Positions 12,030 through 52,147 of a stretch of DNA of 64,000 nucleotides are shown in pieces. The position numbers and the translations under genes were made by a program. Positions within the stretch are counted from its first letter, which is position 1; every line of letters begins with the position of its first letter. The notes below the pieces were generated by a model. The model worked only from the letters and a program-made list of their open reading frames with translations. It had not been told where the DNA came from and did not search any database. The DNA is from a phage: assembly GCA_036253495.1 (NCBI GenBank), contig GCA_036253495.1_4125.1; one strand, written 5' to 3'.

Positions 12030-12044
12030 ATACTTCTCCTATAA

Positions 12045-12067
12045 TATTTATTGGATAAAATATTTAT
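12045..12067 (-). promoter_or_regulatory. Putative T4-type late promoter(s) for lysozyme gene
   Basis: Two ATAAATA cores on minus strand 15-40 nt upstream of the lysozyme ATG. Confidence 0.3.
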
Positions 12068-14727
12068 TGACATGCCTCAATTCTACGTGCCATTAACTCT
12101 GCACGACGAGTTGTTTGACGATACCAAGCGGAACTACGTATATGAGCAGCAGCACCACGATAATCACCTTTAGCTAAACATCCAAGCATACCCTTGAATT
12201 TTTGAACTTTGTATTTGCCCATTTGGAATACCATTTGACATAGTACTTGTTGAGCAATAACAGGTGTTTTTAAATCCCAGGCCGCATATATTGATTTGGC
12301 ATCATTAATTGCTTGCGTACTGTCTCGTACTAATATTGCTTCAGCTTCTGCTTCAGTTATACCACCAGAAAAATCTTCACCTCCGACAATAAGGTGTCCA
12401 TATCCAATTGTAGGGAATCCACGGCTATCAATATAACGCCAGAATTTTCCATTTCTGAAATATCCAAGTGCTGTTTGATATTGGATAGTACCTTCGTGTT
12501 CTTTAAGTTCGGATATAAATTGGGAATCACCCGGAGCAACTTTCCATCCAACGGCAGTTTTATCAACATTACCTACATTATAATTTTGTTCAACTTTTGG
12601 AGCGGTTCCTGCATTTCGAGGCTTACGTTCTCTACGACGAGGAACATGACGAGAACCACGTTGTGAATAACCAGTTCCAATAGTTCGTATGCGAGTTGAT
12701 ATTACCAATTCATCACTATCAGCAGATGGTCTGACCACATCTTTAGGGTTATTTTGTGTTGATGGTTGACCACCAATTAATGTTTTATTCGCCGCAGCAG
12801 AACCCTGACCAGTTACAGTTGTGTAGAATAATCCAGGATCAACTGAACCACTAAAACCATAGATATTAGATGAGCGAACTCTTATTTCAAATCGTAATAT
12901 ACCATTAGCAGTTCCTATTACTTGTCCTTTTTCAACAACATCTTTATTGAATAGGTCAGAAGTTAAACCATAGAAAACAGATTTATAACCAGATTTATGC
13001 TCAACAATAAGAGCATCACCACTGATACCAACAATCCCACCATCTGGTGCAACCACACTTCCACGGGCTTGAATTTCCCATCCACTACTATCACGCTTGG
13101 TTCCATTCTCGGTCGTTACACCCTTACCCCAATAACCATTCTGGCGAATAGTACCGCTACATGGCATAAGCATATGCAAACCTTCAAACGTCTGCGAATA
13201 ACCAGTCATTCCTGGTTCAGCCGCCATTAAATCTTGTGTTTGAACTTCACTTGTCTCTGGGGCATAATTTACAAATTGAATTGCTTCTGTTTCTTGTTGC
13301 TCTGCAAGTGTAGGTTGAACATCATTTGCTGGTTGTGGCTCAACTGGAGATGTTGTACTACCTTGACCACCACCACTTATACCAGGATCAACCCTATCAC
13401 CGTGGTTTTCTGCATCTTTCCAGTTAGCAATCATATGAATGTGGTCATTAAGACCCACTGATGGAGTTTTGAAGTCAGGAGCCATGAATGCAGCACTACC
13501 ACTATTACCTGCACTATCAACCGTTAGGTTTTGACCACCACCACTAATGTTAACGGATGAACCACCAATAACGTTTGCTGAGGATGAACCTTTAATAGAT
13601 GCAGTTGACCCAGCCGTAATATCAGTACTGCTACCACTTTGAAGACGTAATGAAGCACCAGTAACCAAACGAAGATCAGCACCAGAATTAATTACAACCT
13701 GACCATTGACCTTAGCATCCAAATTACCGACCAATTCCAGTTTGGTATTTCCACCAACACGAGTATTGAAGTCTTGCCCACTTTCAATATTATAAGAACG
13801 ACCTGCAACCATGTTAATATCTTGACCTGCACGAATGTTTATGTTTTTATCACAGTGCATTTCAATATCACCATCGCCAGTGAATTTAATACGAGCCGTA
13901 CCATCACGGTTAATTAATAAAACATTACCAGTGGCTTCAGAAATAAGAAGTTGTGCACCACTACGTGTTTTAATAACAATACCTTCATTCTTTCTGGAAC
14001 CAACACGAGTGTCATTAACTGGGTTGTTAAATTGTGTGTCTTGGTATCCATCAGGGTCTTGATCCCATGTTGGCTTGGTCAATTCTTCTTCTGTATATCC
14101 ATCATCAAGAATAAAACTATTACCACGAGGTGTACTCATACCATATACAGTACTGGTTGTTTGACGAGTACTGCTGCGGTTTGCAACACCTGCTTCATCA
14201 TCGTATAATAAGTTTTGTTTTTTCAATCCTTCAACAGCAGGAACGTTAATATATTTGTCTTGCATGTCAGTTGTGATTGTGTTACGATCATAATCAGTTA
14301 CTGGTAATGGCATATCAGTACCATTGTAATTGGTATCCGCAGTTGCCATTCCAGGAACCATTGTATTCATACGTTGGTCATAAACACATCCAATCCAGTA
14401 AGCTTGGAATGTACGTGCTTGTGCAAAAATAACAACAACAGTACATCCCACATCTGGTGGAACGGCCCAAAAACCATAACCCTTTGGATATTGTCCATAA
14501 CTATCTGCACTCGGTATTCCTGGAGTTTTGCCAGCAAACGGAGCCATATAAGAAGCTTCAATCCATGAATCTTTAGAGTTTTTATCACTTTGTGAACCTT
14601 GTATCCATACTTTTAGCTTACCAGATTTCGTAGGATCACGGTTATCCATAACGGTTGCTAATTGTGGATAAGATGGGTCAAAACGACCCAACTGTTCCTT
14701 TGCATACTTTTTACTTGTATCTGCCAT
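12064..14727 (-). CDS. Baseplate central spike, gp5-like, with C-terminal GH24 lysozyme domain and a degenerate M23-like domain
   Basis: 887 aa. N-terminal OB/spike-like region, Gly/Ser-rich beta-helix-like repeats (residues ~290-400), M23/LytM-like segment (…IVEHKSGYKSVFYGLT…GQVIGTANGILRFEIR) lacking the HxH motif, and C-terminal ~160 aa paralogous to the adjacent lysozyme (TIGYGH, MVFQMG, SAWYRQTTRRAELMARRI). Confidence 0.75.
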   Translation of the reverse strand: MADTSKKYAKEQLGRFDPSYPQLATVMDNRDPTKSGKLKVWIQGSQSDKNSKDSWIEASYMAPFAGKTPGIPSADSYGQYPKGYGFWAVPPDVGCTVVVIFAQARTFQAYWIGCVYDQRMNTMVPGMATADTNYNGTDMPLPVTDYDRNTITTDMQDKYINVPAVEGLKKQNLLYDDEAGVANRSSTRQTTSTVYGMSTPRGNSFILDDGYTEEELTKPTWDQDPDGYQDTQFNNPVNDTRVGSRKNEGIVIKTRSGAQLLISEATGNVLLINRDGTARIKFTGDGDIEMHCDKNINIRAGQDINMVAGRSYNIESGQDFNTRVGGNTKLELVGNLDAKVNGQVVINSGADLRLVTGASLRLQSGSSTDITAGSTASIKGSSSANVIGGSSVNISGGGQNLTVDSAGNSGSAAFMAPDFKTPSVGLNDHIHMIANWKDAENHGDRVDPGISGGGQGSTTSPVEPQPANDVQPTLAEQQETEAIQFVNYAPETSEVQTQDLMAAEPGMTGYSQTFEGLHMLMPCSGTIRQNGYWGKGVTTENGTKRDSSGWEIQARGSVVAPDGGIVGISGDALIVEHKSGYKSVFYGLTSDLFNKDVVEKGQVIGTANGILRFEIRVRSSNIYGFSGSVDPGLFYTTVTGQGSAAANKTLIGGQPSTQNNPKDVVRPSADSDELVISTRIRTIGTGYSQRGSRHVPRRRERKPRNAGTAPKVEQNYNVGNVDKTAVGWKVAPGDSQFISELKEHEGTIQYQTALGYFRNGKFWRYIDSRGFPTIGYGHLIVGGEDFSGGITEAEAEAILVRDSTQAINDAKSIYAAWDLKTPVIAQQVLCQMVFQMGKYKVQKFKGMLGCLAKGDYRGAAAHIRSSAWYRQTTRRAELMARRIEACQ

Positions 14728-16877
14728 TACTCACCACCTGGGTTTATTATACTATCTTTACGTTTAAGTGCACGAGCGACAATAGCACCTTGAATTTGTT
14801 GCGTGAAAGTACCGTTTGTACCAAAATCATGAATTATTTTGTTTACGCGATAGATTGTTTCGTTGAATGTGGTTGGCGTGGTTATGTCCAAAATACCAGT
14901 ATTATCATTAATAGAAACAACTGGTTGTAATTTCAATAACAAATATGCTTCAGTTGAAATATAATTTGCATATTTGAAATCCTCTGGATTTATATATAAT
15001 GCTTCACCATTTACCAACATATCCAAATATTGAAGATATGCATGATCACCCCACCCCAACCAATATGGGTCACCAATTACACGCATATCCAACTTACACA
15101 TAAATGGACGGTTATAATAGTTGTCGCGTATTTTACGTCTGTCCATTTCATACGTACTACTATTATCGTTATCAGATGCCGATAAAGTTGTATGGTTGTT
15201 TGTAGCTTCAGTTGGTATAGTGAATATTTCACCCCTACGATCACCAATTCCATCAGCACCCATGTCATTTTCTTCATATACACTACGATAATCTTCAATG
15301 TATTCAGGAAGGACATGAACTTTGTAATTCATATAAGCATCTTGTTCTTCTTGATTACCCACACCCATCGCATTTTTTAATTGCTCATCTACTTCATTTA
15401 GTAATGCAGTTTGAGCTTGTGTTATAATTTCCCCTTTACTTCGTGCTTTTCTTATATCACTAGTCTTATTCCACGCATCTAATGGGTTACTATATTGAAC
15501 CCCTTGTATGGTTAATTCCTGTGATGCATGTGTACCACTTCTGTTACCTTGGTCTTGTATTGGACCTGGGTTACGTGTTGTAGCTACATAAAATTGCTGA
15601 TCGAAATTCATATCCAAATCTAATATTTCATTATTCAATCCACTGAATTGATAATTGTATATTTTCATTCTTAACTTTTCTTCATTATCTCTAGGGTCAA
15701 GATAACGTTCAGAGTTTTCTAGGAACGTTTCGAAGTTAAAGTTTTCTGGTTGTAAATCCGATTCATGAACAACATCACCAATTCGAAAACGAACAATATT
15801 AAAAATAACTTTATATACTGATGTATTACGTAAATTATCAAAACCAACATATTGTTTAAGTGGGATTATATTAACAAATTGGCGAACGCTAGTACTATCA
15901 CCTTCACGAACAGTACATGCATCAATAACATCATCAATTATTCTTGATATTGGTGTACTTGGATTCCATGAAAAGTTTTTAGAACCCTGTGAACCATTTT
16001 TTGTTGAAGTTACTTCAGTCATTTGTTTAGAATCATAGTTTATGAACATATCAGCAAGTTCAGGTGCAACTTTAAATTCAAAAAATTTACCTTCTGCCAG
16101 TTCTGGAAATTTCATACACAAATAACCATACTGTTGTTCTGACATTTCATTTAACTTATCTTCCAAATCATAACAAAATGCTCCAAATTGTGCAGCAGTA
16201 CATGAGAATGTTTCTTTTAATGTCCATTCTACGTTATCAACCAATGCAGCACGATTGTGTACTAAGTTAATGGTATATAACATTGTACTACCAGTTGCAC
16301 TGGCACTTGCTTTAACGTTGTTAATCTTCACTGACCAACGTTTTGTAGTGTTTGGTATGACTTGAGGAACACCATCTTCATTATAACCAATGAACTTTAG
16401 TTCAAGGATTAATGGTAAATCCATAAATTTATGATAACGAAGTTTATTACTTAATGATATCAACTCATCGTAAAAACTCATACTATTGTTTTCTGACATA
16501 CTTATTGAAGCAGTATTAAATGTATAGTTTGTTGTCATACCAGGAGTTGAGGGACCAGCTTGCGTCATCTGAACATTTGTGATATTATACTTACCAGTAA
16601 CGCCACTTTCAGTGATTACATAACGTTGGACTTCAGCATCTGGATTTTCCCAGAACATCTTAAAGTCATCTTTATCTAAGGCAAACAAGGTAAAGTGCCA
16701 CGTTGCTGAATTGTATTTTAATAAAACATTTTCATTGTCAATAATAAAATCAGAAATCTTTTTATCGTCATAAATTCTATCAGTATGTGTGCTTTGAATT
16801 GGTTTTGATTGTACGTTACTTACTTTAGCACCATATTTGTTACTCTGACTAGGGTCTAGTCCAATTTTAGTATCCAT
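14727..16877 (-). CDS. Baseplate hub-like structural protein (gp27/gpD position), hypothetical
   Basis: 716-aa ORF with GGAG RBS directly upstream of the spike gene. Assignment by position only. Confidence 0.35.
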   Translation of the reverse strand: MDTKIGLDPSQSNKYGAKVSNVQSKPIQSTHTDRIYDDKKISDFIIDNENVLLKYNSATWHFTLFALDKDDFKMFWENPDAEVQRYVITESGVTGKYNITNVQMTQAGPSTPGMTTNYTFNTASISMSENNSMSFYDELISLSNKLRYHKFMDLPLILELKFIGYNEDGVPQVIPNTTKRWSVKINNVKASASATGSTMLYTINLVHNRAALVDNVEWTLKETFSCTAAQFGAFCYDLEDKLNEMSEQQYGYLCMKFPELAEGKFFEFKVAPELADMFINYDSKQMTEVTSTKNGSQGSKNFSWNPSTPISRIIDDVIDACTVREGDSTSVRQFVNIIPLKQYVGFDNLRNTSVYKVIFNIVRFRIGDVVHESDLQPENFNFETFLENSERYLDPRDNEEKLRMKIYNYQFSGLNNEILDLDMNFDQQFYVATTRNPGPIQDQGNRSGTHASQELTIQGVQYSNPLDAWNKTSDIRKARSKGEIITQAQTALLNEVDEQLKNAMGVGNQEEQDAYMNYKVHVLPEYIEDYRSVYEENDMGADGIGDRRGEIFTIPTEATNNHTTLSASDNDNSSTYEMDRRKIRDNYYNRPFMCKLDMRVIGDPYWLGWGDHAYLQYLDMLVNGEALYINPEDFKYANYISTEAYLLLKLQPVVSINDNTGILDITTPTTFNETIYRVNKIIHDFGTNGTFTQQIQGAIVARALKRKDSIINPGGE

Positions 16878-18006: not shown

Positions 18007-18058
18007 ATTAGCGATGGCACACGGATTGTGCCTATTGGTCATTACATGGAGAGTTACA

Positions 18059-18898
18059 ATGATAAACAAGCCGAAGCGTAAGAAGTATCTGAATAACGCA
18101 GACTTATTACGTGAAATACATAAAAGTAAGATATCATACTGCTGGCTTTTGGATAAAAGTTATGGTATGTATGATTATATTGTGTTTCATGAGTCTGAAA
18201 TCACAGAAGAATTACTTGAAAAGGCAAAAGCAGCACGAATCAAACGTTTGAATAATGAAATGCTTGATAGTGTTCGCGAAAAAGAGAATATGAGTGCTAA
18301 GAAAGCAAAGGAATATGCTGATGAGCACGGTCTATTCGTAAATGATGTACCACTGGATGAAGTGGTGATTAGAGTTATCACTGATGAGCACATTCCACCA
18401 GATACACGAGTGAATTTTGAACCATTTAAACATTATATCGTTGATAATGAAGGTATTCTGTATGAAGTTGTTCGTTCACATTGGAAAGGCGACTTGGAAG
18501 ATGGCGATTTCTGCTTAACACATGGTAAAATCACAAATGAACTCGGTAAAATGTTCATTAAACTAGCCGAAGAGATCTCTCACAAATCTAACTACAGAAA
18601 TTATACGTATTTGGATGAAATGATGGGTGATGCTAGAATACAATTAGTTAAAAATGCACTTCTCTTTAAAGAGAGTATCTTGTATAAGAAAGATAAACCC
18701 GCTGTCCAACTAAATCCTTTCTCATACTATACGTCATTCGTTAACAATAGCTTCCGTTCTATTTTGAACAGTGAGAAGAATGTACGTAACATTCGCGACG
18801 ACCTTCTTGAGATGCATGGTTTTACACCATCACATACAAGACAGATTGAAATCGAAATGAATATGATTGAAAGGAAAAATGACGATGGCACTATTTGA
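18059..18898 (+). CDS. Late-transcription sigma factor, gp55-like (putative)
   Basis: Start chosen at ATG 18059 (MINKPKRKKYLNNADLLREIH) after GGAGAG RBS. N-terminus resembles T4 gp55 (…YNYVNNKELLQAI…). Adjacent to gp47/gp46 as in T4. Confidence 0.45.
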   Translation: MINKPKRKKYLNNADLLREIHKSKISYCWLLDKSYGMYDYIVFHESEITEELLEKAKAARIKRLNNEMLDSVREKENMSAKKAKEYADEHGLFVNDVPLDEVVIRVITDEHIPPDTRVNFEPFKHYIVDNEGILYEVVRSHWKGDLEDGDFCLTHGKITNELGKMFIKLAEEISHKSNYRNYTYLDEMMGDARIQLVKNALLFKESILYKKDKPAVQLNPFSYYTSFVNNSFRSILNSEKNVRNIRDDLLEMHGFTPSHTRQIEIEMNMIERKNDDGTI

Positions 18899-23659: not shown

Positions 23660-24529
23660 TTATTTCTTCTGGGTTTGAGAAGAGAAGCTGAGATCGAAAA
23701 AATGAGTAGGGTCATACTTTAATCCAGTAAGTTCCCATTGATGCTGACATTCAATACATTCAACTTCCATTGTATGCGATACACCAATCTCTAGTACTTC
23801 ATCCATTTTCTCTCTGATTTGCTTGATCACTTCTTTTGATTGAGTACCTAACCATTCACTTATGAATTTCTTATCTGATACTTCATCACCATCAGGAGTA
23901 ATTACCTTATCAATAACTCCAGCAATCATATCAAAGTTTAGTTGTGCCATGTTTTCAAATACTTCAGAAAACATTTTAATTTTATCATCTTCAGAAATAT
24001 CAATAGTACTTTCAAGATACTTAGTTTTTTGCTGTTCAGCTAACATACGTTGAGAAAACTCTGAATATTCTTTCCAAGTAAGTGGTCTGAACTGAAGAGA
24101 CAAACCATTATTAAGATCAATACTAGGAATTTCAGTAAAAGATTCTGCCGTTTCCAATAGATAAGAAAGATCACGTTCAAAACGGCCTTCTTTGGAACAT
24201 GATGGACATACGACATTGACATCATAACTGGTTTCTTTGGATGCTAACTTGATAGCAATAAGAATTTGCTCAACATCATTGACAAAAAGCTCATCTGCGT
24301 TTAGAATGTTTGGTACACAGTTTTCGATAACAGATGACACTGCACTACCATTGAGTAACATATCAGGTGTATTGAGCATCATTTCGTCACGAGCACTACG
24401 AGCACAGACACCACATTTAATGCCTTTGCTCCCCAATACACCATCTTTGTACTGGAAAATGTTGTTAGTGACGAGTTTAGTACTAATTTCTTCGATTTTT
24501 GTGTATTTTGCTAACGGGTTCATTGACAT
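23660..24529 (-). CDS. Hypothetical Cys-rich (putative zinc-binding) protein
   Basis: Track ORF starts at TTG 24547; ATG at 24529 (MSMNPLAKY…) follows GGAGAAAG. Cys pairs CGVC, CPSC, CIEC. Function not recognised. Confidence 0.65.
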   Translation of the reverse strand: MSMNPLAKYTKIEEISTKLVTNNIFQYKDGVLGSKGIKCGVCARSARDEMMLNTPDMLLNGSAVSSVIENCVPNILNADELFVNDVEQILIAIKLASKETSYDVNVVCPSCSKEGRFERDLSYLLETAESFTEIPSIDLNNGLSLQFRPLTWKEYSEFSQRMLAEQQKTKYLESTIDISEDDKIKMFSEVFENMAQLNFDMIAGVIDKVITPDGDEVSDKKFISEWLGTQSKEVIKQIREKMDEVLEIGVSHTMEVECIECQHQWELTGLKYDPTHFFDLSFSSQTQKK

Positions 24530-24606
24530 AATACTTTCTCCATGCAATAATTATGAAAGTATTTATGTATGTTCAAAACTTCAAAATCACCCAAGAGGAA
24601 TATTTT

Positions 24607-25095
24607 ATGATAAAGACAACAATCAAACGTTTGTTCCAAGCCTTTGGTATCTTTATGGTTGTTATGTTAGTAATCGGTATGATTGTTCCGAAAAGCGAAA
24701 CATCCACAACTAAAGAATCAGAGTACAAAGAGCAGTTAACTAAACGTGAATTACCAACACAAATTGTTAGCTACAAAGGTAAACTGTATAACGAAGATCC
24801 TAATGAGGAACATTTAAAATGGACATTCATCCAATTCACTGTTAACGGTGATGAAGTACTGATGGGTCAGACATATGAATCATGGAGTTATATTGGAAGT
24901 ACTGCATCTGGATATGATGTTTATTACAACATTAACGACTTCACTTATACTGTCGGCGGTGTTCAAAAGACAGTAAAACTTGAAGGTACATTGTATGTTA
25001 ATAGAGAAACAAACTCTATCATATTCAGTAATAAAAATGTTAGTGACGGTTCACCAAAACGAACCTATAGTGCAGTACTGGAACCACGATACTAA
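24607..25095 (+). CDS. Hypothetical membrane-anchored protein
   Basis: ATG 24607 after AAGAGGA RBS. N-terminal hydrophobic segment FQAFGIFMVVMLVIGMIVP followed by a ~140-aa soluble domain. Confidence 0.6.
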   Translation: MIKTTIKRLFQAFGIFMVVMLVIGMIVPKSETSTTKESEYKEQLTKRELPTQIVSYKGKLYNEDPNEEHLKWTFIQFTVNGDEVLMGQTYESWSYIGSTASGYDVYYNINDFTYTVGGVQKTVKLEGTLYVNRETNSIIFSNKNVSDGSPKRTYSAVLEPRY

Positions 25096-25204: not shown

Positions 25205-27376
25205 ATGGCTGTAAACAACAGTGATTACTTACTACAACAGATAGTGAATAAATCTAATGATACCGTAGATGGTCTTTCAGCTATACGTGAATTGTTAGCA
25301 GAAAGTTTAAAGAATGATAAAAAGAAAAATAATGGTGGTGGTAACCCATCACCTGGCGATTCATCTGGACCAAGTGGTGGTGGACGCGGTTCTCGTGGTA
25401 ATTCATCCTCTATGGGTAAAATGTTCAGAGCAATGTCCAGCGAAATGACAAACGTTGGTAAAACAATGATGAGTACTTCAGCGAATGTCAGTACTGTCAT
25501 TAACTCAATGGGTATGAGTGCATCATCCGTAGCTGGCTCTCTTTCTATGATCCCTGGTCCTGTAGGAATGGCAGCATCAGCATTTAAAATGGTTGCTGAT
25601 GTAGGGATGGCAGTATATAACGTAATGAACGCCCAGCTTGAAATGTACAACAGAGTCAACAGTGCGGGTGTTTCTCTTGCTGAAGGTTATGGCTCTTTGC
25701 TAAAAGGTTCAGGTTCAGCGTTAATGTCTATGGATCTATTCAGTGAAGTAATATCAACTCATAGTGATGTTATTGCACAATTGGATGGTTCGTATGGAGA
25801 TGGCGTTAAGGAATTTGGTAAATTGTTAGGTGTAGTTCAAAATGCCCAAGATAAACTTGGCCTATTTGGTATGTCACAAAAAACTTTATCAGATTTAGCA
25901 GCACGTAACATCAAAATTCAAAAACAATTTGGTGGTGCAGAACTAGTAAGGAATATAAACCAAGCACAAAGTACCCAAGAGTTAATTAAAACTATGTCTA
26001 CTTTTAGTAAGACAATGGGTATGTCAATTGATGAATTACTTAAAAAGACACAATCACTTGATAAATCATTTGATGCAAGAATACTAAAAACTACACTAAA
26101 CAACTGGGTGGGACTATCAGAAGAAACCGCAACATTAACCACTAAAGCACTTACCGAAGCGGCAGGTGGTATGGGGGATATGGGTACTGATTTCCTAAGA
26201 TTGATTAGCCACAGAATATCAATTGGTGGTGTTCCTGATGATTTATTATCTCCAATGATTAGCGAATTCGCTGACCTTGGTGAGAACATGGTTAAGTCTG
26301 GTGTAACCGATGCAAAAGCTATACGTGAAGCACAATATCAGTGGGTGAAGAAAAACAGAAAACGCGTTGAAAAAGATATGGAAGATATGCAACGAAGTCA
26401 AAACTTCACCGCTGCCGCATTTGCTAAGCAAATGTTAGATATGGAAGCTGCAATTAATGCTGACAAAAATCGACCAGCAGATAAAATCGCAGAATTTACT
26501 GATAGATTGAACAGATGGGTCAGTACTGAATTTGTTGCTCCATTCAATAAAATGTATGCTGATGTTCAAAATAATGTTGTTGATTATTTGACAGCAATTG
26601 CAGATCGTACCGATAGTGCATGGGGATTTATTTGGGAATTGGCTAAAGATGGATTTGGGTTAGTTCCAATATTCAAGGATGCAGTTGCTTATGTTGATCG
26701 TGTCGGTAATGAATTTGTATTGTGGCTTGAAGGATTAGGTGCAGATATATTTGGTGATACATACACTCAAGTTTCAAAAGCATTCGATGACTTCATGAAG
26801 AATCTCATGGATTTACCTGGAAAGTTATGGGATAAAGTAAAAGGATGGTTTGGTTCAGATGATAAATCTGAAAAACAAGAAGAACCTAAAAAGAAAATAG
26901 AAGAGAAAGCTACATCTTTCTGGGATTCTATTGGTAATTCAGTAGACGATTTCACAAAATTTGTAGAAGAAAAAACACTTGACTTCCAAAAATGGAAATC
27001 TTCTAAATTATATACACCACCTAGACCATTTAACGTAGATAATGCATATCGAGTCTTGGGCTATGAACCACCTAAAAACGTCCAGACTACAGTAATGCCA
27101 AATACACCACCTATGATGGAATTAACTCGTAAACATTATGATAAATCCGCATGGAAACCTGGTGAAGCACCATTCCCACCAGAACCAGATCGTGATATAA
27201 AATCTCTGGTAACGCCACAAAACGGAACTATAAATAATGACATGAGTTCAGAAGAGATCAAAGAAATTTTTAAACGTCTAGCAGAAATGAGTGAACAATC
27301 ACTCGCAGCAACAAATCAGACAAATAATTACTTAAGAACAATTTCTGAAAATACACAAGGTGAACGCAATAGTTAA
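25205..27376 (+). CDS. Large Gly/Met/Ser-rich virion protein (tape-measure-like or internal protein, putative)
   Basis: 723 aa with Gly-rich N-terminus, Met/Ala-rich hydrophobic helices (MGMSASSVAGSLSMIPGPVGMAASAFKMV), long helical middle, immediately upstream of portal. Function inferred from composition only. Confidence 0.3.
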   Translation: MAVNNSDYLLQQIVNKSNDTVDGLSAIRELLAESLKNDKKKNNGGGNPSPGDSSGPSGGGRGSRGNSSSMGKMFRAMSSEMTNVGKTMMSTSANVSTVINSMGMSASSVAGSLSMIPGPVGMAASAFKMVADVGMAVYNVMNAQLEMYNRVNSAGVSLAEGYGSLLKGSGSALMSMDLFSEVISTHSDVIAQLDGSYGDGVKEFGKLLGVVQNAQDKLGLFGMSQKTLSDLAARNIKIQKQFGGAELVRNINQAQSTQELIKTMSTFSKTMGMSIDELLKKTQSLDKSFDARILKTTLNNWVGLSEETATLTTKALTEAAGGMGDMGTDFLRLISHRISIGGVPDDLLSPMISEFADLGENMVKSGVTDAKAIREAQYQWVKKNRKRVEKDMEDMQRSQNFTAAAFAKQMLDMEAAINADKNRPADKIAEFTDRLNRWVSTEFVAPFNKMYADVQNNVVDYLTAIADRTDSAWGFIWELAKDGFGLVPIFKDAVAYVDRVGNEFVLWLEGLGADIFGDTYTQVSKAFDDFMKNLMDLPGKLWDKVKGWFGSDDKSEKQEEPKKKIEEKATSFWDSIGNSVDDFTKFVEEKTLDFQKWKSSKLYTPPRPFNVDNAYRVLGYEPPKNVQTTVMPNTPPMMELTRKHYDKSAWKPGEAPFPPEPDRDIKSLVTPQNGTINNDMSSEEIKEIFKRLAEMSEQSLAATNQTNNYLRTISENTQGERNS

Positions 27377-33473: not shown

Positions 33474-33528
33474 TTTACAAAAAAGTAGAAAAAAGCAAAA
33501 ACACAGAATTAAATTCTTTTCAAAAAAA

Positions 33529-33560
33529 GGGACTCTTCGGAGTCCCTTTTCTTTTTTTTC
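33529..33560 (+). terminator. Strong intrinsic terminator after the capsid gene
   Basis: gggactc-UUCG-gagtccc (C(UUCG)G tetraloop) followed by TTTTCTTTTTTTT. Confidence 0.8.
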
Positions 33561-33569
33561 AAAAAAGTG

Positions 33570-33598
33570 TTGACATAGATCCTAGAAATAGATATAAT
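33570..33598 (+). promoter_or_regulatory. Consensus sigma70 promoter (TTGACA-N17-TATAAT)
   Basis: Perfect -35 TTGACA 33570-33575 and -10 TATAAT 33593-33598 with 17-nt spacer, directly upstream of the endonuclease-like gene. Confidence 0.7.
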
Positions 33599-33633
33599 AC
33601 GCGTATAGTAATTAATGTATAGGATATGAAGAA

Positions 33634-34773
33634 ATGAACAAAGAGCGGTTTGTTGAAAGTATGAATGAAAAGTATTCGTCATTGGGAATTAACGGTGACT
33701 TTGATTTCTCAAATTTAGTTTTTAAGACAAGTAAGATGACCGTAAAATGTAACCACTGTGGTAAAGAAAACACAAAAAGTGCATTACGCCATTTGGAATG
33801 TACCTGCAAATGTTATTCAAATCTTTCACAGAAAATATCAAAAGACGAATTTATTGATAGAATGAATGAAAAATTTGGTGTTGGTGTTTATAAATTTGAT
33901 AAACTTTTCTTTTTGAATGTTAGGGATGTTATTGAAGTATACTGTTCCAAACACGAAGGATACTTTAAAACAACCCCATACAATATGAGTCGTAGTGTGA
34001 ATGGGTGTAACATTTGCATTCCAAATAAAAAAATGAATCATGATGAATTTGTTTATAGATGTAACGCGTTATATCCGTATTTGGATTTTAACCGAGTTGA
34101 TGAAAATGGTGATAAAATAACAAAATTTGTAGGAACAACAAAGTATATAAAAGTATGGTGTAATAGACATAATGGAATTTGGGATGTTTATGCAAATACT
34201 TTGTTGAAAGGTAAAAATCATTGTGGTATATGTACCGGACGCAAACTTAGAACCAAAGAACAATTTGTAGAATTAGCATCTAAGATTCATGATAACAAAT
34301 ATGATTATTCAGAAGTTGAATATAAAAATAGTGAACATAAGGTGAAAATTATTTGTACAGAATGTAATGAATCATTTTCACAACAGCCAAAAGCTCACTT
34401 ATCTGGTAGAGGGTGTCCGGTATGTGGGAAGTATGGATATCAACAAAATAAGCCAGGTTATTTTTATATACAAAAATTAACTCCAAAAAATATAAATGAA
34501 GTAGCAATTTATAAAATTGGAATTACTGGAGATTTATTCAGAAGAATGTATGAACAATCTCTACATTCAGAATATTTTCATGAGTTTATCAGAACTGAAT
34601 TCTTTAGTGATGGTATAAAACCACTGGAGTTAGAAACACTTATAAAAAAAACTATTACATGTGGAATAATAACAGAAAATGAATTACAAGATGGATTTAG
34701 TGAAACGATTTCATCAAATGATGTTTATGAAGTTCACAAAATCGTAAATAAATTTATAGAGAGTGAAAAATGA
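33634..34773 (+). CDS. T5orf172/GIY-YIG-like nuclease-domain protein with four N-terminal zinc-ribbon-like repeats (putative homing endonuclease)
   Basis: C-terminus PGYFYIQKL…VAIYKIGITGDLFRRM matches the T5orf172 (GIY-YIG superfamily) signature. N-terminal ~45-aa modules each carry a C…H…GC(P)xC pattern (e.g. VKCNHCG…ECTCKC; IICTECN…GRGCPVCG). Confidence 0.55.
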   Translation: MNKERFVESMNEKYSSLGINGDFDFSNLVFKTSKMTVKCNHCGKENTKSALRHLECTCKCYSNLSQKISKDEFIDRMNEKFGVGVYKFDKLFFLNVRDVIEVYCSKHEGYFKTTPYNMSRSVNGCNICIPNKKMNHDEFVYRCNALYPYLDFNRVDENGDKITKFVGTTKYIKVWCNRHNGIWDVYANTLLKGKNHCGICTGRKLRTKEQFVELASKIHDNKYDYSEVEYKNSEHKVKIICTECNESFSQQPKAHLSGRGCPVCGKYGYQQNKPGYFYIQKLTPKNINEVAIYKIGITGDLFRRMYEQSLHSEYFHEFIRTEFFSDGIKPLELETLIKKTITCGIITENELQDGFSETISSNDVYEVHKIVNKFIESEK

Positions 34774-35267
34774 AATATAAAAATTTACAAAAAATGAAAT
34801 ATTATGCTGTTCTTCATGGCGAAGAAGGGGATGACTGGGCTTTTTATAATTATGATAAATTAGTTGAAGGATATGCTTATAATTTTGATGATGATTATTA
34901 TCAATTAAGAATTCAATATGATGAATATATAATATTTTCTGACAATTTCTGCACTAACTCAACTTCCATTGGTATTGGATCTATCAAAAATGAACTTACA
35001 AATCAAATAGTAAAGTGTAGAAATAAATCAAATGAAGTTATTGTGTATACGGAAGGTGCAAACTATTCATCTGGTATGAAACTGATCGGACGACCTAATT
35101 TCGATAGTACTGACGAACTATTTCAAATATCAACAGTATGTAATATTGATTGGGATAAAGTCAAAGAAGCATTTCGTATATTGGATGAATTGAATGAGAT
35201 AATCAATTTTAAATATTATCTAACTAAACCATCTGAATCTCTAGAATTAACTAATTTACCGAAATAA
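34770..35267 (+). CDS. Hypothetical protein
   Basis: 165-aa AT-rich ORF in the accessory island; no recognised motif. Confidence 0.5.
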   Translation: MKYKNLQKMKYYAVLHGEEGDDWAFYNYDKLVEGYAYNFDDDYYQLRIQYDEYIIFSDNFCTNSTSIGIGSIKNELTNQIVKCRNKSNEVIVYTEGANYSSGMKLIGRPNFDSTDELFQISTVCNIDWDKVKEAFRILDELNEIINFKYYLTKPSESLELTNLPK

Positions 35268-35287
35268 CAATAAGGAGGTTAACACGG

Positions 35288-35668: not shown

Positions 35669-35977
35669 ATGTCACAAATATGTTATGTAATCACTAATAG
35701 TGCATGGCCTGAATATGTAAAGATAGGCTTCACTACAAAATCAGAGATGAAAGAGCGTTTAGGTGTTTACCAGACTGCTTCACCATTCAGGGATTTTGAG
35801 GTATACCATCAGGTTATGTTTGACGATGCACGAACAGCAGAAAAGGAAGTGCATAAGAGATTAAAGCAAATGAATGCAACAAGGCAACCTAACTCTGAAT
35901 GGTTCAAGATGCCTAAAAAGTTAGCTGCAAATATTATTGATTCCGTATTGGATGATATGGAAAATGATTTACTATAG
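35669..35977 (+). CDS. T5orf172/MUG113-like (GIY-YIG superfamily) domain protein
   Basis: ICYVITNSAWPEYVKIGFTTKSEMKERL…SPFRDFEVY…ARTAEKEVHKRL…SEWFKM matches the T5orf172 domain pattern. AGGAG RBS. Confidence 0.6.
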   Translation: MSQICYVITNSAWPEYVKIGFTTKSEMKERLGVYQTASPFRDFEVYHQVMFDDARTAEKEVHKRLKQMNATRQPNSEWFKMPKKLAANIIDSVLDDMENDLL

Positions 35978-36017
35978 ATATAAATATGATATATATTAAA
36001 CAAAAAAGGATTTTTAC

Positions 36018-37628
36018 ATGAGCATAAGTTTTAATCATCCACAGAATACTGTAACCAGTACTGCGGAAAATGGTTCATTGAATCTAATAGTACTAGGTGG
36101 TACACCAACTAATCCTCGACCAATTAGAATGAATTCTTCATCGGTAATACTACCTGTTCAGGATTTGCCTGTTGGTGAAGCAGGGGCGATAGTATTTGAC
36201 AAAAACACTCTTACTTTGAAGTATCATGATGGTACTAACTGGATTGAAATGTTAAGTGCTGCCGATGTAGTTGCACCAATTGAACAACAGATTCAGGATA
36301 TCAATTCTATACTTGGAACTAAGGTTGATAGAGTAACCTATTCAATGTCATCAATTCCAACTGCTTCTATTAGCGGAACTACATTGAATATTATATTCCC
36401 AACACCTTCATCAATTCAAGGTGCTAATGGTTTGTACACGAGTGCTAAACCTGGATGTATTATGCATTATAGCTTGACATCTGGACAAACCGTTGCTAGT
36501 ATACGTGAACAAATGTCGGGTAGTACTGGTGGACAGAGTGGTCGTGACGGCTCCCAAGCTAAACCGTGGAAAACATCCGATGGTTGGTGTTTTGCTGATG
36601 GTATGTGGTGGCAGTGGCAAGGTGCTAATGGTACAATAACCAAACAAGTACCAAACTTGAACCGTGATGGATATTTAAGAAGTATCACCACTAGTGGTAT
36701 AACCAAAACTGACGCAATGATAGCAGGTGGTGGTTCATTAACACCGAGTACTTTCACTATTCCAGACCACATTCATGGGACTGGTAAAATGTTAGGTACT
36801 AACGGTAGTGATGCGGATGATGCTGTTTTCATTAGTGGTAGAGCATGGAATGATGGCAGAGGCTATCGTGGTCCTGCAATCTTTGGTGATAAGAATGCCC
36901 GTATGGAGTTTAGTGTAGATGGTAACAATGCAGCAACTGCATTATCAACTTCACAACCAATTTATGATGATGCGAATGCACGCACAATAACCCATAACCA
37001 TACAGTAACAGGTATTGACGTACCACACTTTAACACTGCAATTTTGTATAACATTTCCGAACCATCAGTTGCGATGAGCGAAAATACTGCAAATGGTCGT
37101 TTTGTTCGTAAAACTGGTGATACAATGTCTGGTGAATTATACATTGCTAACCGTGCTGGTATTCGTGGTGGTGGTGATTTGTACTTATTCTTCCAGAACG
37201 CTAGTGGTGGTGAACGTGCCGCAGTATACTTCCAAGGTAATGAACTAAGACTTCGTGCTGGTGGTGGTGCTGTAACAGTTAACAGTGGTGGTTCTTTGTA
37301 TATACCAGGTTCATTAACAGTTAACGCAGCATCAGCAACTGTCGGAACGAAACATATAGTACGTTCTGTTAACGGCTCAACTGCTGGTTCTGATGGTAAT
37401 GTAAATATATCTGTCGGATCAGTACAAGATGTACGTTTTTTCAATCAAGATTATTATTGGCCGGGTGGTAATGAGTTATCATGGCACTTTGTGTGTCCAT
37501 CAGGTGCAGTACTAAGTGGTATAAATGTACAAGATGTTGGTAAAAACTCTGCTGATAACATTGGTGGTGTGAATTATAAATTTATACAAATTTTGGTTGA
37601 TGGTAGCTGGAGAAATATAAACGGATAA
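36018..37628 (+). CDS. Tail fibre protein
   Basis: 536 aa, Gly/Ser/Thr/Asn-rich, with the tail-fibre motif VRKTGDTMSGELY and repeated beta-rich segments. Followed by a Tfa chaperone gene. Confidence 0.7.
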   Translation: MSISFNHPQNTVTSTAENGSLNLIVLGGTPTNPRPIRMNSSSVILPVQDLPVGEAGAIVFDKNTLTLKYHDGTNWIEMLSAADVVAPIEQQIQDINSILGTKVDRVTYSMSSIPTASISGTTLNIIFPTPSSIQGANGLYTSAKPGCIMHYSLTSGQTVASIREQMSGSTGGQSGRDGSQAKPWKTSDGWCFADGMWWQWQGANGTITKQVPNLNRDGYLRSITTSGITKTDAMIAGGGSLTPSTFTIPDHIHGTGKMLGTNGSDADDAVFISGRAWNDGRGYRGPAIFGDKNARMEFSVDGNNAATALSTSQPIYDDANARTITHNHTVTGIDVPHFNTAILYNISEPSVAMSENTANGRFVRKTGDTMSGELYIANRAGIRGGGDLYLFFQNASGGERAAVYFQGNELRLRAGGGAVTVNSGGSLYIPGSLTVNAASATVGTKHIVRSVNGSTAGSDGNVNISVGSVQDVRFFNQDYYWPGGNELSWHFVCPSGAVLSGINVQDVGKNSADNIGGVNYKFIQILVDGSWRNING

Positions 37629-37631
37629 TTT

Positions 37632-38087
37632 ATGATAACTTTAAAAAATTTTAAATCATATGAAGGTAATGACCCTAAATTAAAAAAATTAAATGTTGCT
37701 TTTTTAATTTCAGAATGTGGAATGGATTGGTATGATTCTCAAAAATTATTTTCCGAAAATACAATGAAAATTGTGGTTGATAAAAATAATATAGTTTGCA
37801 ATGCAACACGTGATATTACTATGATGTATCCAGTGGATGCTAGTGTATATGAAATTGAATATGATGGTGATGGACATGAACTAAGAGGAAAAATATATCA
37901 TGAAGAAGATGGCACTTTTTCTGAAAGACCACCTCGTAAACCTACCCCACAACAAATATTCAATGATTTGAGTGAACGTAAAAAAGTACTGGACATGAAG
38001 AAAGAATTCGATATGTTGAGCACTGAAGAAGCTGCTGAGTACGAGAAGCTAATCTCTGATCTTAAAGAAGTTTTAAACCTTCTTTAA
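37632..38087 (+). CDS. tfa: Tail fibre assembly chaperone (lambda/E. coli Tfa-type)
   Basis: MITLKNFKSYEGN…DWYDSQ…TMKIVVDKNNIVCNATRDITMMYPVDASVYEI parallels enterobacterial Tfa (…LKNIKAGN…NWYEE…[32 protein letters not shown]) from memory. Confidence 0.65.
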   Translation: MITLKNFKSYEGNDPKLKKLNVAFLISECGMDWYDSQKLFSENTMKIVVDKNNIVCNATRDITMMYPVDASVYEIEYDGDGHELRGKIYHEEDGTFSERPPRKPTPQQIFNDLSERKKVLDMKKEFDMLSTEEAAEYEKLISDLKEVLNLL

Positions 38088-38093
38088 AAATTT

Positions 38094-38121
38094 GGGACAC
38101 ATTGAGAAGTACTGATATAAT
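38094..38121 (+). promoter_or_regulatory. sigma70-like promoter GGGACA-N16-TGaTATAAT
   Basis: Same motif family as 17979, 22682, 42060, 50886, 50962 and 61008. Confidence 0.5.
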
Positions 38122-38123
38122 AG

Positions 38124-38163
38124 AGACATTCCACGAGGAACATTGTGGAGTGTCTATTTTTTC
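38124..38163 (+). terminator. Terminator-like hairpin (11-bp stem plus U-run) immediately downstream of the promoter; possible attenuator
   Basis: agacattccac-gaggaacatt-gtggagtgtct followed by ATTTTTTC, located in the leader of the dsbA-like gene. Confidence 0.55.
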
Positions 38164-38185
38164 ATTAACACATGGAGATACAACA

Positions 38186-38488
38186 ATGGCTAAGTCTAAA
38201 AAAGAAGCAAAAGTAGAAATTCGTGACCTAAACGACGAACAACGTAAACGTCTAAGTGATGGTCTAAACAATGCAGTGGTACAGCTAACCTTTATTGATG
38301 ATACCAAAGCTTCCTATACTGATTTCATCAACTCTCTTTCTGATGAGCTAGGTATTGATGCATCCGATATCAAACAAGCTGCACAACGCATTTACAAAGG
38401 CGATTACTTTGATAAGCAAAACAAACTAGACAACATCGAAACTATCCTAAGCGTAACTAATAATCTACCACAAGCTGATGATTATTAA
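38186..38488 (+). CDS. dsDNA-binding protein DsbA-like (putative)
   Basis: ATG 38186 after GGAGA. …DFINSLSDELGIDASDIKQAAQRIYKGDYFDKQ… resembles T4 DsbA …DIRIRAKDELGVDGKMFNRLLALYHKDNRDVF…. Confidence 0.4.
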   Translation: MAKSKKEAKVEIRDLNDEQRKRLSDGLNNAVVQLTFIDDTKASYTDFINSLSDELGIDASDIKQAAQRIYKGDYFDKQNKLDNIETILSVTNNLPQADDY

Positions 38489-38573: not shown

Positions 38574-41500
38574 ATGTATATCGATGCTTATATGGAACGT
38601 AAACGTACTGGTGATATTCTTCACGTAGTTGAACGTAAAAACGGGAAGCGTATTCTCCGTGAACTGGAGCCAGTATTTGAGTATTATGTAGAATCACCAT
38701 TAGGTACACACAAAACTGTATATGGTACAATGGCACAACATCTTGAGTTTTCTTCACAGGCTCAAATGAATAAAAGCGTAGAGCAGCACAAAAGTGAAGG
38801 TCTACGAATTTTTGAAAGTGATTGTAACATTACGTTTAAAACGTTAGCGAAAGAGTACATGGGTAAGGGTTCTCCTGACCTTAACATTGCATTCTTCGAT
38901 ATCGAAACAGACTTCCATAAGAAGTTTGGGTATGCACCACCATCAGACCCGTTCAACCGTGTAACTGCAATTTCTTTGTATCAATCATGGACTGGTAAGG
39001 ATTATGTTTTAACACTTCCTCCAGTTGACATGGAAATTTACGAAGCACAAGACATTGTTCGACGTTTGAACGAAGAGACAAATGATCCTAACAGTACTGT
39101 CATCCTTTATACGGATGAAAAAGAAATGTTTATGGAATTCTTTAGTCTTATTGATGATTCTGATGTATTATCAGGGTGGAATAGTGAGTTCTTTGATATT
39201 CCATACATGATTAACCGCACAAAGAAAATCTTCAATGAAGCAACCACTGCTCGTTGGTGCTTGTGGAATAAGAAACCTAGTGCTCGTGAAGCAGATAACT
39301 TTGGTAAAACTGTAGTAACCTATGATTTAGTTGGTCGTGTTCACTTAGATTATCTTGCTCTTTATAAGAAACATGCTGGTCAAGTTGAACAATCATATAA
39401 ACTAGATTACATTGCAGAGAAAGTAACTAAAGAGAATAAAGTATCTTATGAAGGTTCTTTGGATAAACTATATCGTGAAGATTACATTACCTTCTTGCGT
39501 TATTCTAAGCAGGATAGTATTCTTCTGAAGAAAATTGATGCTGTATGTGACTTTATCAACCTACACAACCGTCTTGCTCATAAAGAGTGTGTACTAATTA
39601 GTACTACAATGGGTTCGGTAGCTCTGATTGATACTGCAATTATTAACCTTGCACATAGTCGTGGTGAAGTGGTATTCAACAAAGCACCTAAAGATGATTT
39701 TGAAGTTGATTATGAAACAGAATCATATGAAGATGAAGATGATGAAGCAGATGAGAAAATTAGTGCTAAAGCTGCTGGTGCATGGGTACAAGATCCAGTA
39801 CTAGGTTTGGTGAGTGATTTGGGATGTACTGACTTTAACTCACTGTATCCAACTGTACTTCGTACATTAGGTATGAGTACTGAATGCATTCTTGGGCAAC
39901 TTCGTCAGGATTACACTGATGCGTATCTTGCTGCTAAAATTCAAGAGCAAAAGGCCAAATCCAAATCGAAATCATTCGAACCAGACTGGACTGCTGCATG
40001 GCATGGTTTGTTTGCTGCTGTTGAGTTTACAATGGTTCATGAGAAATCAGATCAAACAATCATTGTTGATTTGGAAGATGGAAGTTCTTTCCATGCGACT
40101 GGCAAAGAGTTGTATGATATAATCTTTGCCGAGGACAGTACTATTGTTCTAAGTGCTAACGGAACACTATTTGACAAGTCTAAGTATGGTGTAATTCCAG
40201 ACATTCTAACTCAATGGTATTCTGAACGTAAAGCACAACAAAAGATGGTAATTGATTACAAACACATGTATAGTGATGGTTGGGAATTTAATGGTCATGA
40301 GAAAGTTGAACCACTTCTATCCAACTATATTCCTGGTACAATGTTCCGCACCAACTTACATGAAAATGATCCTGTTTATCTATTGCGTATTGCAATTGGT
40401 AAAGGTCAATGGGAAGATGTAGCTAAACTAATTGTTGAAAATGGTTTAGAACTAAAAGACGGAAGAATTTTCTGTTCTAAAGAAGATAAAGCATATTTCA
40501 AACAACAAAGTGCATTCTGGAAACAGAACCAGCAGATTCGTAAGATTCTTCTAAACAGTCTATATGGTGCACTATTGAACAAAGGTTCACGTTTCTTTGA
40601 TAAGCGTTTGGGTCAGTCTGTTACCTTAACTGGTCGTTCTATGACTAAACACATGGCGAGTCGTATCAATGAAATTACAACTGGTGTTTACAATCACCAG
40701 GGTGGTTCTGTAATTTATGGTGATACTGACTCCGTATACTTCAGTGTAACCCATTACTTGAAAGAACAAGGTATTCCGTACAATCTATCTAAAGAAGAAA
40801 TTGTTGATATGTACATTAAAATTGGTGATGAAGTTGGTGAGTCCTTCCCATCTTTTATGCATCAGATGTTCAACACTGGAATTGAGAAAGGTAAGATTGT
40901 AGGTGCTGACCTTGAGATGGTAGGTTCTCGTGGATTGTTCCTGAAGAAGAAACGTTATGCAATTCTGAAGTACTGGGAAGATGGATTCCGTAAAGATGTT
41001 GATGGTAAACCTGGTGAAATCAAGGCAATGGGTCTTGAGATTAAACGTTCAGATACGCCAAAATACATCCAGAACTTCCTAGAAGAGACTCTAATCGCTC
41101 TACTGGTAGGGGAGTCAGAGGCTGAACTAAAACAGCGTGTACGTGACTTTAAAGCGGTATTTAAAGACATTCCTGTACACGAGAAAGGTTCTCCGCGTAC
41201 CGTTAAGAACTACACTAATCTGGAAGCTGAATATAACACTACTGGTAAGTGTAAAGTTGGACACGTATTGGCAGGTATTCAATGGAACCGTCTACGTGAA
41301 GTGTATGATGACAAGTCAGTACCAGAAGTTACTGATGGTACAAAAGTTATCGTGTGTAATCTAAAAGATAACCCAATGGGAATTAAAGCTGTAGGATATC
41401 CAATTGACTGTGTAGAGTATCTACCTGAATGGTTCTTAGAATTACCGTTTGATAGTGAGAAAATGGAAGAGATAGTTTTAACTAAGAAATTAGAAAACAT

Positions 41501-41579
41501 CTTTGGTATTCTCGATATGGATATTGGTATTCATGAGAAAAGTACAGCAGCAGTTAACAATGGTTTCTTCTCTTGGTAA
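38574..41579 (+). CDS. 43: DNA polymerase, family B (gp43-like)
   Basis: Exo I FFDIETD, Pol motif A DFNSLYPTV, motif C VIYGDTDSVYF, 1001 aa. Confidence 0.95.
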   Translation: MYIDAYMERKRTGDILHVVERKNGKRILRELEPVFEYYVESPLGTHKTVYGTMAQHLEFSSQAQMNKSVEQHKSEGLRIFESDCNITFKTLAKEYMGKGSPDLNIAFFDIETDFHKKFGYAPPSDPFNRVTAISLYQSWTGKDYVLTLPPVDMEIYEAQDIVRRLNEETNDPNSTVILYTDEKEMFMEFFSLIDDSDVLSGWNSEFFDIPYMINRTKKIFNEATTARWCLWNKKPSAREADNFGKTVVTYDLVGRVHLDYLALYKKHAGQVEQSYKLDYIAEKVTKENKVSYEGSLDKLYREDYITFLRYSKQDSILLKKIDAVCDFINLHNRLAHKECVLISTTMGSVALIDTAIINLAHSRGEVVFNKAPKDDFEVDYETESYEDEDDEADEKISAKAAGAWVQDPVLGLVSDLGCTDFNSLYPTVLRTLGMSTECILGQLRQDYTDAYLAAKIQEQKAKSKSKSFEPDWTAAWHGLFAAVEFTMVHEKSDQTIIVDLEDGSSFHATGKELYDIIFAEDSTIVLSANGTLFDKSKYGVIPDILTQWYSERKAQQKMVIDYKHMYSDGWEFNGHEKVEPLLSNYIPGTMFRTNLHENDPVYLLRIAIGKGQWEDVAKLIVENGLELKDGRIFCSKEDKAYFKQQSAFWKQNQQIRKILLNSLYGALLNKGSRFFDKRLGQSVTLTGRSMTKHMASRINEITTGVYNHQGGSVIYGDTDSVYFSVTHYLKEQGIPYNLSKEEIVDMYIKIGDEVGESFPSFMHQMFNTGIEKGKIVGADLEMVGSRGLFLKKKRYAILKYWEDGFRKDVDGKPGEIKAMGLEIKRSDTPKYIQNFLEETLIALLVGESEAELKQRVRDFKAVFKDIPVHEKGSPRTVKNYTNLEAEYNTTGKCKVGHVLAGIQWNRLREVYDDKSVPEVTDGTKVIVCNLKDNPMGIKAVGYPIDCVEYLPEWFLELPFDSEKMEEIVLTKKLENIFGILDMDIGIHEKSTAAVNNGFFSW

Positions 41580-47245: not shown

Positions 47246-52147
<4,902 letters not shown>

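Follow-up and report, generated by a model that had tools for sequence, protein, structure and literature searches.

The stretch of phage DNA analysed here, 64,000 nt of contig GCA_036253495.1_4125.1 (assembly GCA_036253495.1; referred to as the window), carries a tail fibre gene and, directly downstream of it, a gene for a tail fibre assembly (Tfa) chaperone at positions 36018 to 38087. Both open reading frames (ORFs) were confirmed as an earlier note on this DNA had described them, including the GDTMSGEL motif of the fibre (aa 367-374, nt 37116-37139). A gap of 3 nt separates the fibre stop codon from the chaperone start codon. The fibre protein matched PHROG 13229 ('tail fiber protein') over aa 1-534 of its 536 residues (E 1.3e-215), and the 151-aa protein matched PHROG 136 ('tail fiber assembly protein'; E 4.9e-25), so that neither is a chance ORF. 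Together with the matches of the chaperone to Mu gpU and in hhalign (see below), these results uphold the assignment of the pair as a fibre and a Tfa-type chaperone. Searches of NCBIfam gave nothing useful for the fibre and no match for the chaperone. The two genes, the modules of the fibre and a block of altered sequence identity that covers most of the pair are as follows:

36018-37628, plus strand: fibre ORF, 536 aa, ATG start (ORF listing)
36018-36737, plus strand: fibre aa 1-240, conserved N-terminal part (presumed baseplate attachment) plus conserved central segment
36738-37052, plus strand: fibre aa 241-345, middle module 'type 1' with two HxH motifs (aa 251-253 and 326-328)
37053-37412, plus strand: fibre aa 346-465, shaft, contains GDTMSGEL
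37413-37625, plus strand: fibre aa 466-536, distal tip (presumed receptor-binding domain)
37632-38087, plus strand: chaperone ORF, 151 aa, ATG start (ORF listing); Tfa-type tail fibre assembly chaperone with a presumed beta-rich N-domain (about aa 1-90) followed by two modelled helices in its C-terminal part (aa 106-125 and 131-150)
36088-37980, plus strand: block of low identity to the otherwise near-identical metagenome relative L005, read as a recombination tract

The DNA of the window is 99.3% identical to that of Escherichia phage A4 (ON286972, 355.5 kb), a jumbo coliphage with E. coli LF82 as host, which agrees with the enterobacterial type of host proposed in the earlier note. A4_14, a 'putative tail fiber protein', is 99.2-99.4% identical to the window fibre at the protein level, and A4_15, a 'tail assembly chaperone', is 100% identical to the 151-aa protein. 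A4 is placed in Asteriusvirus by NCBI; in a 2026 comparison it is given as 'not defined', with an intergenomic similarity to fEgEco12 of 58.5% (PMC13070987). The two genes are thus already annotated in a near-identical public genome, an ortholog of the fibre has been characterised in phage RaK2, and the pair belongs to known, ordinary phage biology.

By sequence comparison the 536-aa fibre is an ortholog of RaK2 gp098. Its aa 1-465 are 56% identical to RaK2 gp098 / phiK64-1 S2-8, and tblastn returned 71 phage records that cover at least 80% of the window fibre. RaK2 gp098 has the same genomic position, the same type of middle module and the same shaft as the window fibre; it differs in its length of 595 aa, in extra SQGSATVSGNI repeats, in a Gp53-like_C domain at its end (PF21882, E 5.5e-10) and in the lack of a Tfa gene after it.

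An alignment of the fibres of ten phages, with identities calculated per segment, showed that the protein is a mosaic. Residues 1-240 are 57-70% identical to those of the 121Q group, RaK2 and GAP32/CBB and 88-90% identical to those of A4-type metagenome relatives. This part is equally far from 121Q (68%) and RaK2 (69%), despite major capsid protein (MCP) identities of 97% and 81%, respectively. Similarity to the 121Q group at the DNA level is confined, within the fibre gene, to nt 36446-36712 (about 79%). The middle module is 50-53% identical to that of RaK2, GAP32 and CBB, whereas its comparison with 121Q, vB_Ec-M-J, WPEC5 and UE-S1 gave 21-23% identity with 19 gap columns, which is essentially unalignable; the latter four phages carry another type of module with three HxH motifs. 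The shaft can be aligned in all relatives (45-61%), yet it is only 68% identical to that of L005, whose core genes are 100% identical to those of the window. Finally, the tip shares no more than 16-32% identity with its counterparts in 121Q, GAP32 and RaK2. Its best match outside the group is the tip of the Vequintavirinae phage TH18 (61.5%), followed by tips of Rac-SA53, phiTE-like, SfMu and P2-like elements (42-59%) and by Shigella prophage tail proteins (47-48%). The fibres of phiTE (short tail fibre, STF), TH18, Rac-SA53 and P2-like phages share with it a tip motif of about 70 aa (V.D.R...PGGNE.SW.F..PSG..LSGI.VQ..GK.SADNIGGV.YK..QI...G.W; 42-61% identity), and in these phages the same tip sits on wholly different fibre bodies. 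Among solved structures, PDB entry 9cuy_c (phiTE 'Short tail fiber') matched fibre aa 416-536 with an E value of 7.8e-10; in the phiTE structure 9CUY the part of the STF built into the map is limited to residues 3-92, and the tip itself is not experimentally resolved.

The divergence of the pair was compared with that of its surroundings. Of 52 window genes that were compared with their counterparts in vB_Ec-M-J (protein identity), fibre and chaperone are both among the six lowest: the median identity is 85% (interquartile range 74-92) and the values for fibre and Tfa are 53% and 24% (full length), respectively. Identities with 121Q and with L005 were as follows:

MCP: 97% with 121Q, 100% with L005
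DNA polymerase: 94% with 121Q, 100% with L005
100-aa regulator-like protein: 90% with 121Q, 100% with L005
fibre: 51% with 121Q, 82% with L005
Tfa: 33-41% with 121Q, 76% with L005; no detectable match to vB_Ec-M-J beyond about aa 90

In the comparison with L005 the change is abrupt. Within the block 36088-37980 nucleotide identity is 64-92% (100-nt windows, median about 82%), as against 97-100% on either side of it (35888-36087, and 37982 to about 38700); at greater distances identity is mostly 92-100%. The synonymous divergence (dS) of the fibre gene from L005 is 0.66, about four to six times that of MCP, orf116 and DNA polymerase (0.11-0.18), which argues for replacement by a diverged allele rather than for selection alone. 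The ratio of nonsynonymous to synonymous divergence (dN/dS) in the same comparison is 0.19 for the fibre and 0.39 for Tfa; flanking genes range from 0.01 to 0.04. A raised dS against L005 (0.42) was also obtained for the T5orf172 gene upstream of the fibre. At the downstream side, the window resembles A4 up to the last 17 nt or so of the Tfa gene and L005 beyond.

Base composition gave no indication of a foreign origin. The GC content of the fibre gene is 0.402 (z +1.3) and its GC content at third codon positions (GC3) 0.233 (z -0.6); the values for Tfa are 0.303 (z -1.6) and 0.191 (z -1.7). The codon-usage scores of both genes fall inside the spread of the 53 window genes, so that the check on composition suggested in the earlier note did not bear out acquisition from elsewhere. 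A search for similar DNA in 5,426 E. coli genomes, as might derive from a prophage donor of tip and Tfa, returned no match. In the window, only short, chance-level flanking or inverted repeats and no invertase were found, nor was there a template-repeat copy or paralog of the cassette at the DNA or protein level. The window thus shows no sign of a Mu-like G-segment inversion system or of a diversity-generating retroelement as a source of programmed fibre variation.

The gene order around the pair is MCP, endonuclease-like gene, 116-aa ORF, T5orf172 gene, fibre, (Tfa), 100-aa regulator-like gene and DNA polymerase. The neighbours that define this order, and the baseplate genes of the window, are listed here:

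33634-34773: endonuclease-like gene, 379 aa, upstream of the fibre gene
35669-35977: T5orf172 gene (GIY-YIG-like), upstream of the fibre gene
38574-41579: DNA polymerase gene, downstream of the chaperone gene
7568-11032, minus strand: baseplate wedge gene
11132-11527, minus strand: gp25-like baseplate gene
11541-14727, minus strand: baseplate hub/lysozyme gene
23660-24529, minus strand: baseplate hub subunit gene

The pair therefore does lie between an endonuclease island and replication genes, with the endonuclease-like and T5orf172 genes upstream and the DNA polymerase gene downstream. The baseplate genes are on the other strand, 11.5-25 kb upstream of it, for which the distance of about 20 kb given in the earlier note is roughly right. 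What did not hold is the view that this place is unusual. The same order is kept in 121Q, vB_Ec-M-J, UE-S1, WPEC5, GAP32 (Cronobacter), CBB (Pectobacterium), RaK2 (Klebsiella) and three metagenome contigs, and an orthologous fibre occupies the locus in every relative examined, in at least three genera (Asteriusvirus, Mimasvirus and Alcyoneusvirus). From this conserved order it follows that the locus dates back to the ancestor of all RaK2-like phages, and distance from the baseplate genes is here no sign of recent acquisition.

The content of the locus is far less constant than its position. Across the relatives, two unrelated middle modules and at least four tip types occur, and Tfa is present or absent; the expectation of the earlier note that related phages carry a different fibre/Tfa pair at the same site was thus borne out, as middle modules, tips and chaperones all vary and some phages have no chaperone. 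In 121Q (gp607/gp608), as in PBECO4, phAPEC6 and vB_Ec-M-J, the locus, the length class and the arrangement of fibre followed by Tfa are the same as in the window. The 121Q fibre, however, is 51% identical to that of the window, with the other type of middle module and a tip identity of 21-32%, and the Tfa of this type has 171 aa, passes PF02413, keeps an F-P-x-x-P tail and is 41% identical over the N-terminal 90 aa. A4 has the same neighbours as the window on both sides of the pair. It differs by a 695-bp insert directly after Tfa which holds the gene for a second chaperone (A4_16, 165 aa) and a terminator of its own, and the window differs from A4 upstream by another endonuclease gene and an extra 165-aa ORF. 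The 695-bp module with this orphan, Tfa-like gene (165-166 aa) is found in the metagenome relative L008 as well (3862-4362; the A4 insert is at 14071-14765) and is lacking in the window and L005. The idea that A4_16 is a displaced Tfa of the 121Q type was rejected; its closest counterparts are the Tfa proteins of three Salmonella jumbo phages, Munch, SE_PL and 7t3 (32-34%).

Two further observations concern this variation. WPEC5-type coliphages have core genes about 98% identical to those of the 121Q group, and at this locus WPEC5 itself encodes (5001-6710) a fibre of 569 aa whose C-terminal end is RaK2-like, and lacks Tfa. Chaperone-dependent and chaperone-free tips thus alternate among close relatives. 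In addition, the last 26 nt of the window Tfa gene (38062-38087) form a near-perfect palindrome, CTTAAAGAAG...CTTCTTTAA, which is present in the window and L005 and not in A4 and L008; it coincides with the junction at which the second-chaperone module is present or absent.

Taken together, homology, synteny, mosaic structure and the recombination signal make it rather probable that the pair consists of a RaK2 gp098-type fibre and its Tfa chaperone at an ancestral locus whose content is exchanged piece by piece by homologous recombination, i.e. a host-range cassette with a fixed address. Pieces would be swapped between co-infecting relatives in addition to evolving rapidly. In the virion, the fibre would be attached to the baseplate by its conserved N-terminal part; binding to a receptor on the cell surface would fall to the small distal tip, held out by the HxH middle module and the shaft. 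The Mu-U-like N-domain of the chaperone may bind the C-terminal region of the fibre, with the helical C-terminal part helping three fibre chains to trimerise. Of the horizontally acquired host-range cassette proposed in the earlier note, the variable and recombining locus stands, and the acquisition does not, since the position is conserved and the composition is not foreign. The same note had taken conservation of both sequence and position among relatives as a point against its proposal; position proved to be conserved, and sequence did not.

Two other histories of the locus were weighed against piecewise exchange. A recent import of the whole cassette from a lambda-like or other temperate enterobacterial phage, inserted at an odd site, would fit the fact that the pair is among the most divergent genes of the window, and the families of the tip and of the Tfa N-domain are indeed common in temperate and mid-sized enterobacterial phages (P2-like, SfMu, Rac, P1 and Mu). 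Such an import is nevertheless very improbable. It is largely refuted by synteny, as an orthologous fibre fills the locus in all relatives examined from three genera; GC, GC3 and codon usage are inside the range of the window; the E. coli genomes searched hold no matching DNA; the best tip match outside the group reaches just 61.5% and the lambda Tfa an E value of 13; and flanking repeats, an invertase or paralogs were not found in the window. Alternatively, fibre and chaperone might have diverged in place, without exchange, under strong diversifying selection by host receptors. The dN/dS ratios, which in all three comparisons are 5-20 times higher in fibre and Tfa than in the flanks, would be explained in this way, and so would the comparison with L008, in which dS is about equal in cassette and flanks. 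The comparison with L005, with its four- to sixfold higher fibre dS (0.66 versus 0.11-0.18) and sharp block edges, speaks against it. Divergence in place also accounts poorly for a middle module that is unalignable with that of the 121Q group and yet shared in type with RaK2, GAP32 and CBB, for the equal distance of aa 1-240 from 121Q and RaK2 (68% and 69%) in the face of MCP identities of 97% and 81%, and for chaperone genes that come and go among relatives; we regard it as improbable, though less so than a wholesale import. Several observations do weigh against the reading of the pair that we prefer. Because dS against L008 is alike in cassette and flanks, fast protein evolution alone would suffice for that comparison. 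TH18, which has the closest relative of the tip, encodes a chaperone with an unrelated N-domain, which misfits a simple pairing of one tip with one chaperone. The AlphaFold2 models of Tfa and of the tip are both poor and so give no confirmation at the level of the fold. Finally, the ortholog in the Asteriusvirus phAPEC6, expected to be gp221, is missing from the 62 virion proteins detected by mass spectrometry, as is the phAPEC6 Tfa, which calls for caution over its presence in virions of the coliphage group.

The place of the fibre in the particle was considered as well. It might be the distal subunit of a long tail fibre, comparable to T4 gp37, P2 H or Mu S, instead of a short baseplate fibre. 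Dependence of the tip on Tfa is typical of long or side fibres such as those found in P2, Mu and lambda, HxH motifs recall the tip of T4 gp37, and the ortholog in a Yersinia relative is annotated 'Long tail fiber protein p37'. However, immunogold labelling in RaK2 located gp098 outside the long fibres, at the baseplate, where it is accessible mainly once the tail has contracted. Moreover, the best match among solved structures was deposited as 'Short tail fiber' (9cuy_c), the baseplates of phAPEC6 and fEgEco12 show six short fibres, and these genomes have genes for other, much larger fibre proteins at different loci. A role as long-fibre subunit thus appears unlikely, if somewhat less so than either of the two histories discussed above.

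The evidence on location comes from experiments on RaK2. There, gp098 is a virion protein, phages plate less efficiently in the presence of antiserum against its C-terminal part, and the immunogold label is found mainly on particles whose tails have contracted; the authors regard it as a baseplate protein outside the branched long fibres and as a likely secondary receptor-binding protein (PMC10253068). By analogy, the window fibre is probably a trimeric baseplate protein that serves as a secondary receptor-binding protein in irreversible binding.

Judged by sequence and profile comparison, the 151-aa protein is a member of the Tfa family with a Mu-U-like N-domain and not a chaperone of the lambda type. 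BLASTP aligned it with Mu gpU at 39% identity over aa 1-75 (E 6e-14), and phmmer aligned aa 4-76 with PDB 5yvq_B (Mu gpU; E 3e-8). When a profile of five window-type proteins was compared by hhalign with a profile of lambda Tfa, Mu U, Mu U', Rac and TH18 proteins, the match extended over aa 2-138 (97.9%, E 4.9e-13). The wording 'lambda-type' and 'strikingly similar to enterobacterial Tfa proteins' in the earlier note overstated the case, as the similarity is to Mu gpU: direct BLASTP with lambda Tfa (orf-194) gave E = 13, i.e. no detectable pairwise similarity, and in the Pfam search PF02413 (Caudo_TAP) was not matched, nor was any other family even at E <= 10. To be Tfa-like is therefore not to be lambda-like. 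The proteins at the same locus in 121Q and vB_Ec-M-J do match PF02413 (E 2.7e-9 and 4.1e-9). P2 gpG is a further member of the Tfa family.

The chaperone shares with Mu gpU (TfaMu, PDB 5YVQ chain B) the homologous N-domain and the position of its gene directly after the fibre gene; it is shorter, lacks C-terminal profile columns and has no Pfam match. In the alignment it ends with ...LKEVLNLL, about 18-26 residues before the W/F-P-x-x-P motif that is present in lambda Tfa, Mu U/U', 121Q gp608, MJ_342 and A4_16. Accordingly, the last 30 or so C-terminal columns of the profile (W..Y...DTS..P.IEWP..P) were left unmatched in hhalign, and the preceding helix motif D/E-M/L-x-S/A-T-x-E-E is retained. 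The chaperones of GAP32 and CBB (137 aa) are shortened in the same way, and it is conceivable that such proteins without the W/F-P-x-x-P tail form a functionally distinct subclass. TH18 has the related tip followed by a lambda-like Tfa that is unrelated to the N-domain of the window chaperone. AlphaFold2 modelling from five sequences (the homologue search gave five close relatives, an alignment too shallow for a good model) resulted in a mean pLDDT of 58, with the helices at aa 106-125 and 131-150 at 70-85 and the N-domain below 50. For the tip, for which three relatives were found and the alignment was likewise too shallow for structure prediction, the model from four sequences had a pLDDT of 38; both models were too poor for a fold search. 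A modular mechanism has been described for Tfa (PMC9608196, a summary of work on Mu), in which the N-domain is variable and attaches to the fibre, whereas the C-domain is conserved and helical and brings about trimerisation; the two modelled helices fit the helical C-domain described there.

Candidate expression signals flank the pair:

35979-35986, plus strand: TATAAATA, match to the T4-type late-promoter consensus (a consensus match only), 32 nt before the fibre ATG
38124-38165, plus strand: intrinsic-terminator-like hairpin with a 13-bp stem followed by a T run, closing the fibre-Tfa unit

The fibre ATG is preceded, at a distance of about 10 nt, by the ribosome-binding site AAGGA. Three of the five copies of TATAAATA in the window are intergenic and ahead of structural genes, and both A4 and vB_Ec-M-J have an annotated gp55-like late sigma factor in the region that corresponds to window positions 18014-18898. 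As the motif is not enriched in the window (five copies versus 9.2 expected), it is only a weak lead to a late promoter. The arrangement suggests that the pair is probably expressed late from a promoter directly upstream, with transcription ending at the terminator at 38124-38165, and that translation of Tfa is probably coupled to that of the fibre. A TTG-start ORF of 128 aa in the mechanical listing (38102-38488) spans the terminator-like hairpin (38124-38155); the real downstream gene starts with ATG and encodes 100 aa (38186-38488; equivalent to A4_17 and 121Q gp609). Its product matches PHROG 12534 and, weakly, a 'transcriptional regulator' PHROG, and is conserved to 90-100% in the coliphage relatives and to 78% in RaK2.

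Natural variants of the locus show two sites at which it can be cut and re-joined, one just past the initial 70 nt or so of the fibre gene and the other close to the 3' end of Tfa. In A4-like or 121Q-like jumbo coliphages of therapeutic interest, the locus is probably one determinant of host range beside the large fibre genes elsewhere; the practical value of these findings is modest. The conserved T5orf172 and endonuclease-like genes, which in every relative lie immediately upstream of the fibre, could in principle keep the cassette mobile, if their cuts led to gene conversion during co-infection. Host-range alleles would then spread by hitch-hiking on endonuclease-triggered repair. Hints in this direction are limited to adjacency, the raised T5orf172 dS in the L005 comparison (0.42) and the fact that the endonuclease island itself turns over rapidly, and we consider the idea a long shot.

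The endonuclease island itself (33475-35287) is the sole part of positions 24000-48000 that is not about 99% identical to A4. It comprises the 379-aa endonuclease-like gene (33634-34773) and a 165-aa ORF (34770-35267) without a Pfam or PHROG match and without a counterpart in six relatives; the GC contents of the two ORFs (0.29 and 0.27) are the minimum of the window. A strong terminator-like hairpin is located at 33525-33550, 3' of the MCP gene, and just after it, immediately upstream of the endonuclease-like gene, lies a perfect sigma-70 consensus (TTGACA-17-TATAAT, 33570-33598).

Other genes of the window also stood out in the comparison with vB_Ec-M-J. A 180-aa ORF at 24553-25095 had no match in the 73 kb of that genome that were compared. 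A 232-aa ORF at 47252-47950, upstream of the terminase large-subunit genes, shares only 31% identity with the ORF that takes its place there; in A4, the equivalent of this ORF and the ORF next to it are labelled 'large terminase subunit'. Finally, a structural protein of 723 aa (25205-27376, upstream of the portal gene) is 56% identical to its counterpart, which is annotated 'tail length tape measure protein'. Compared with the window median of 85%, this value marks it as another fast-diverging virion gene.

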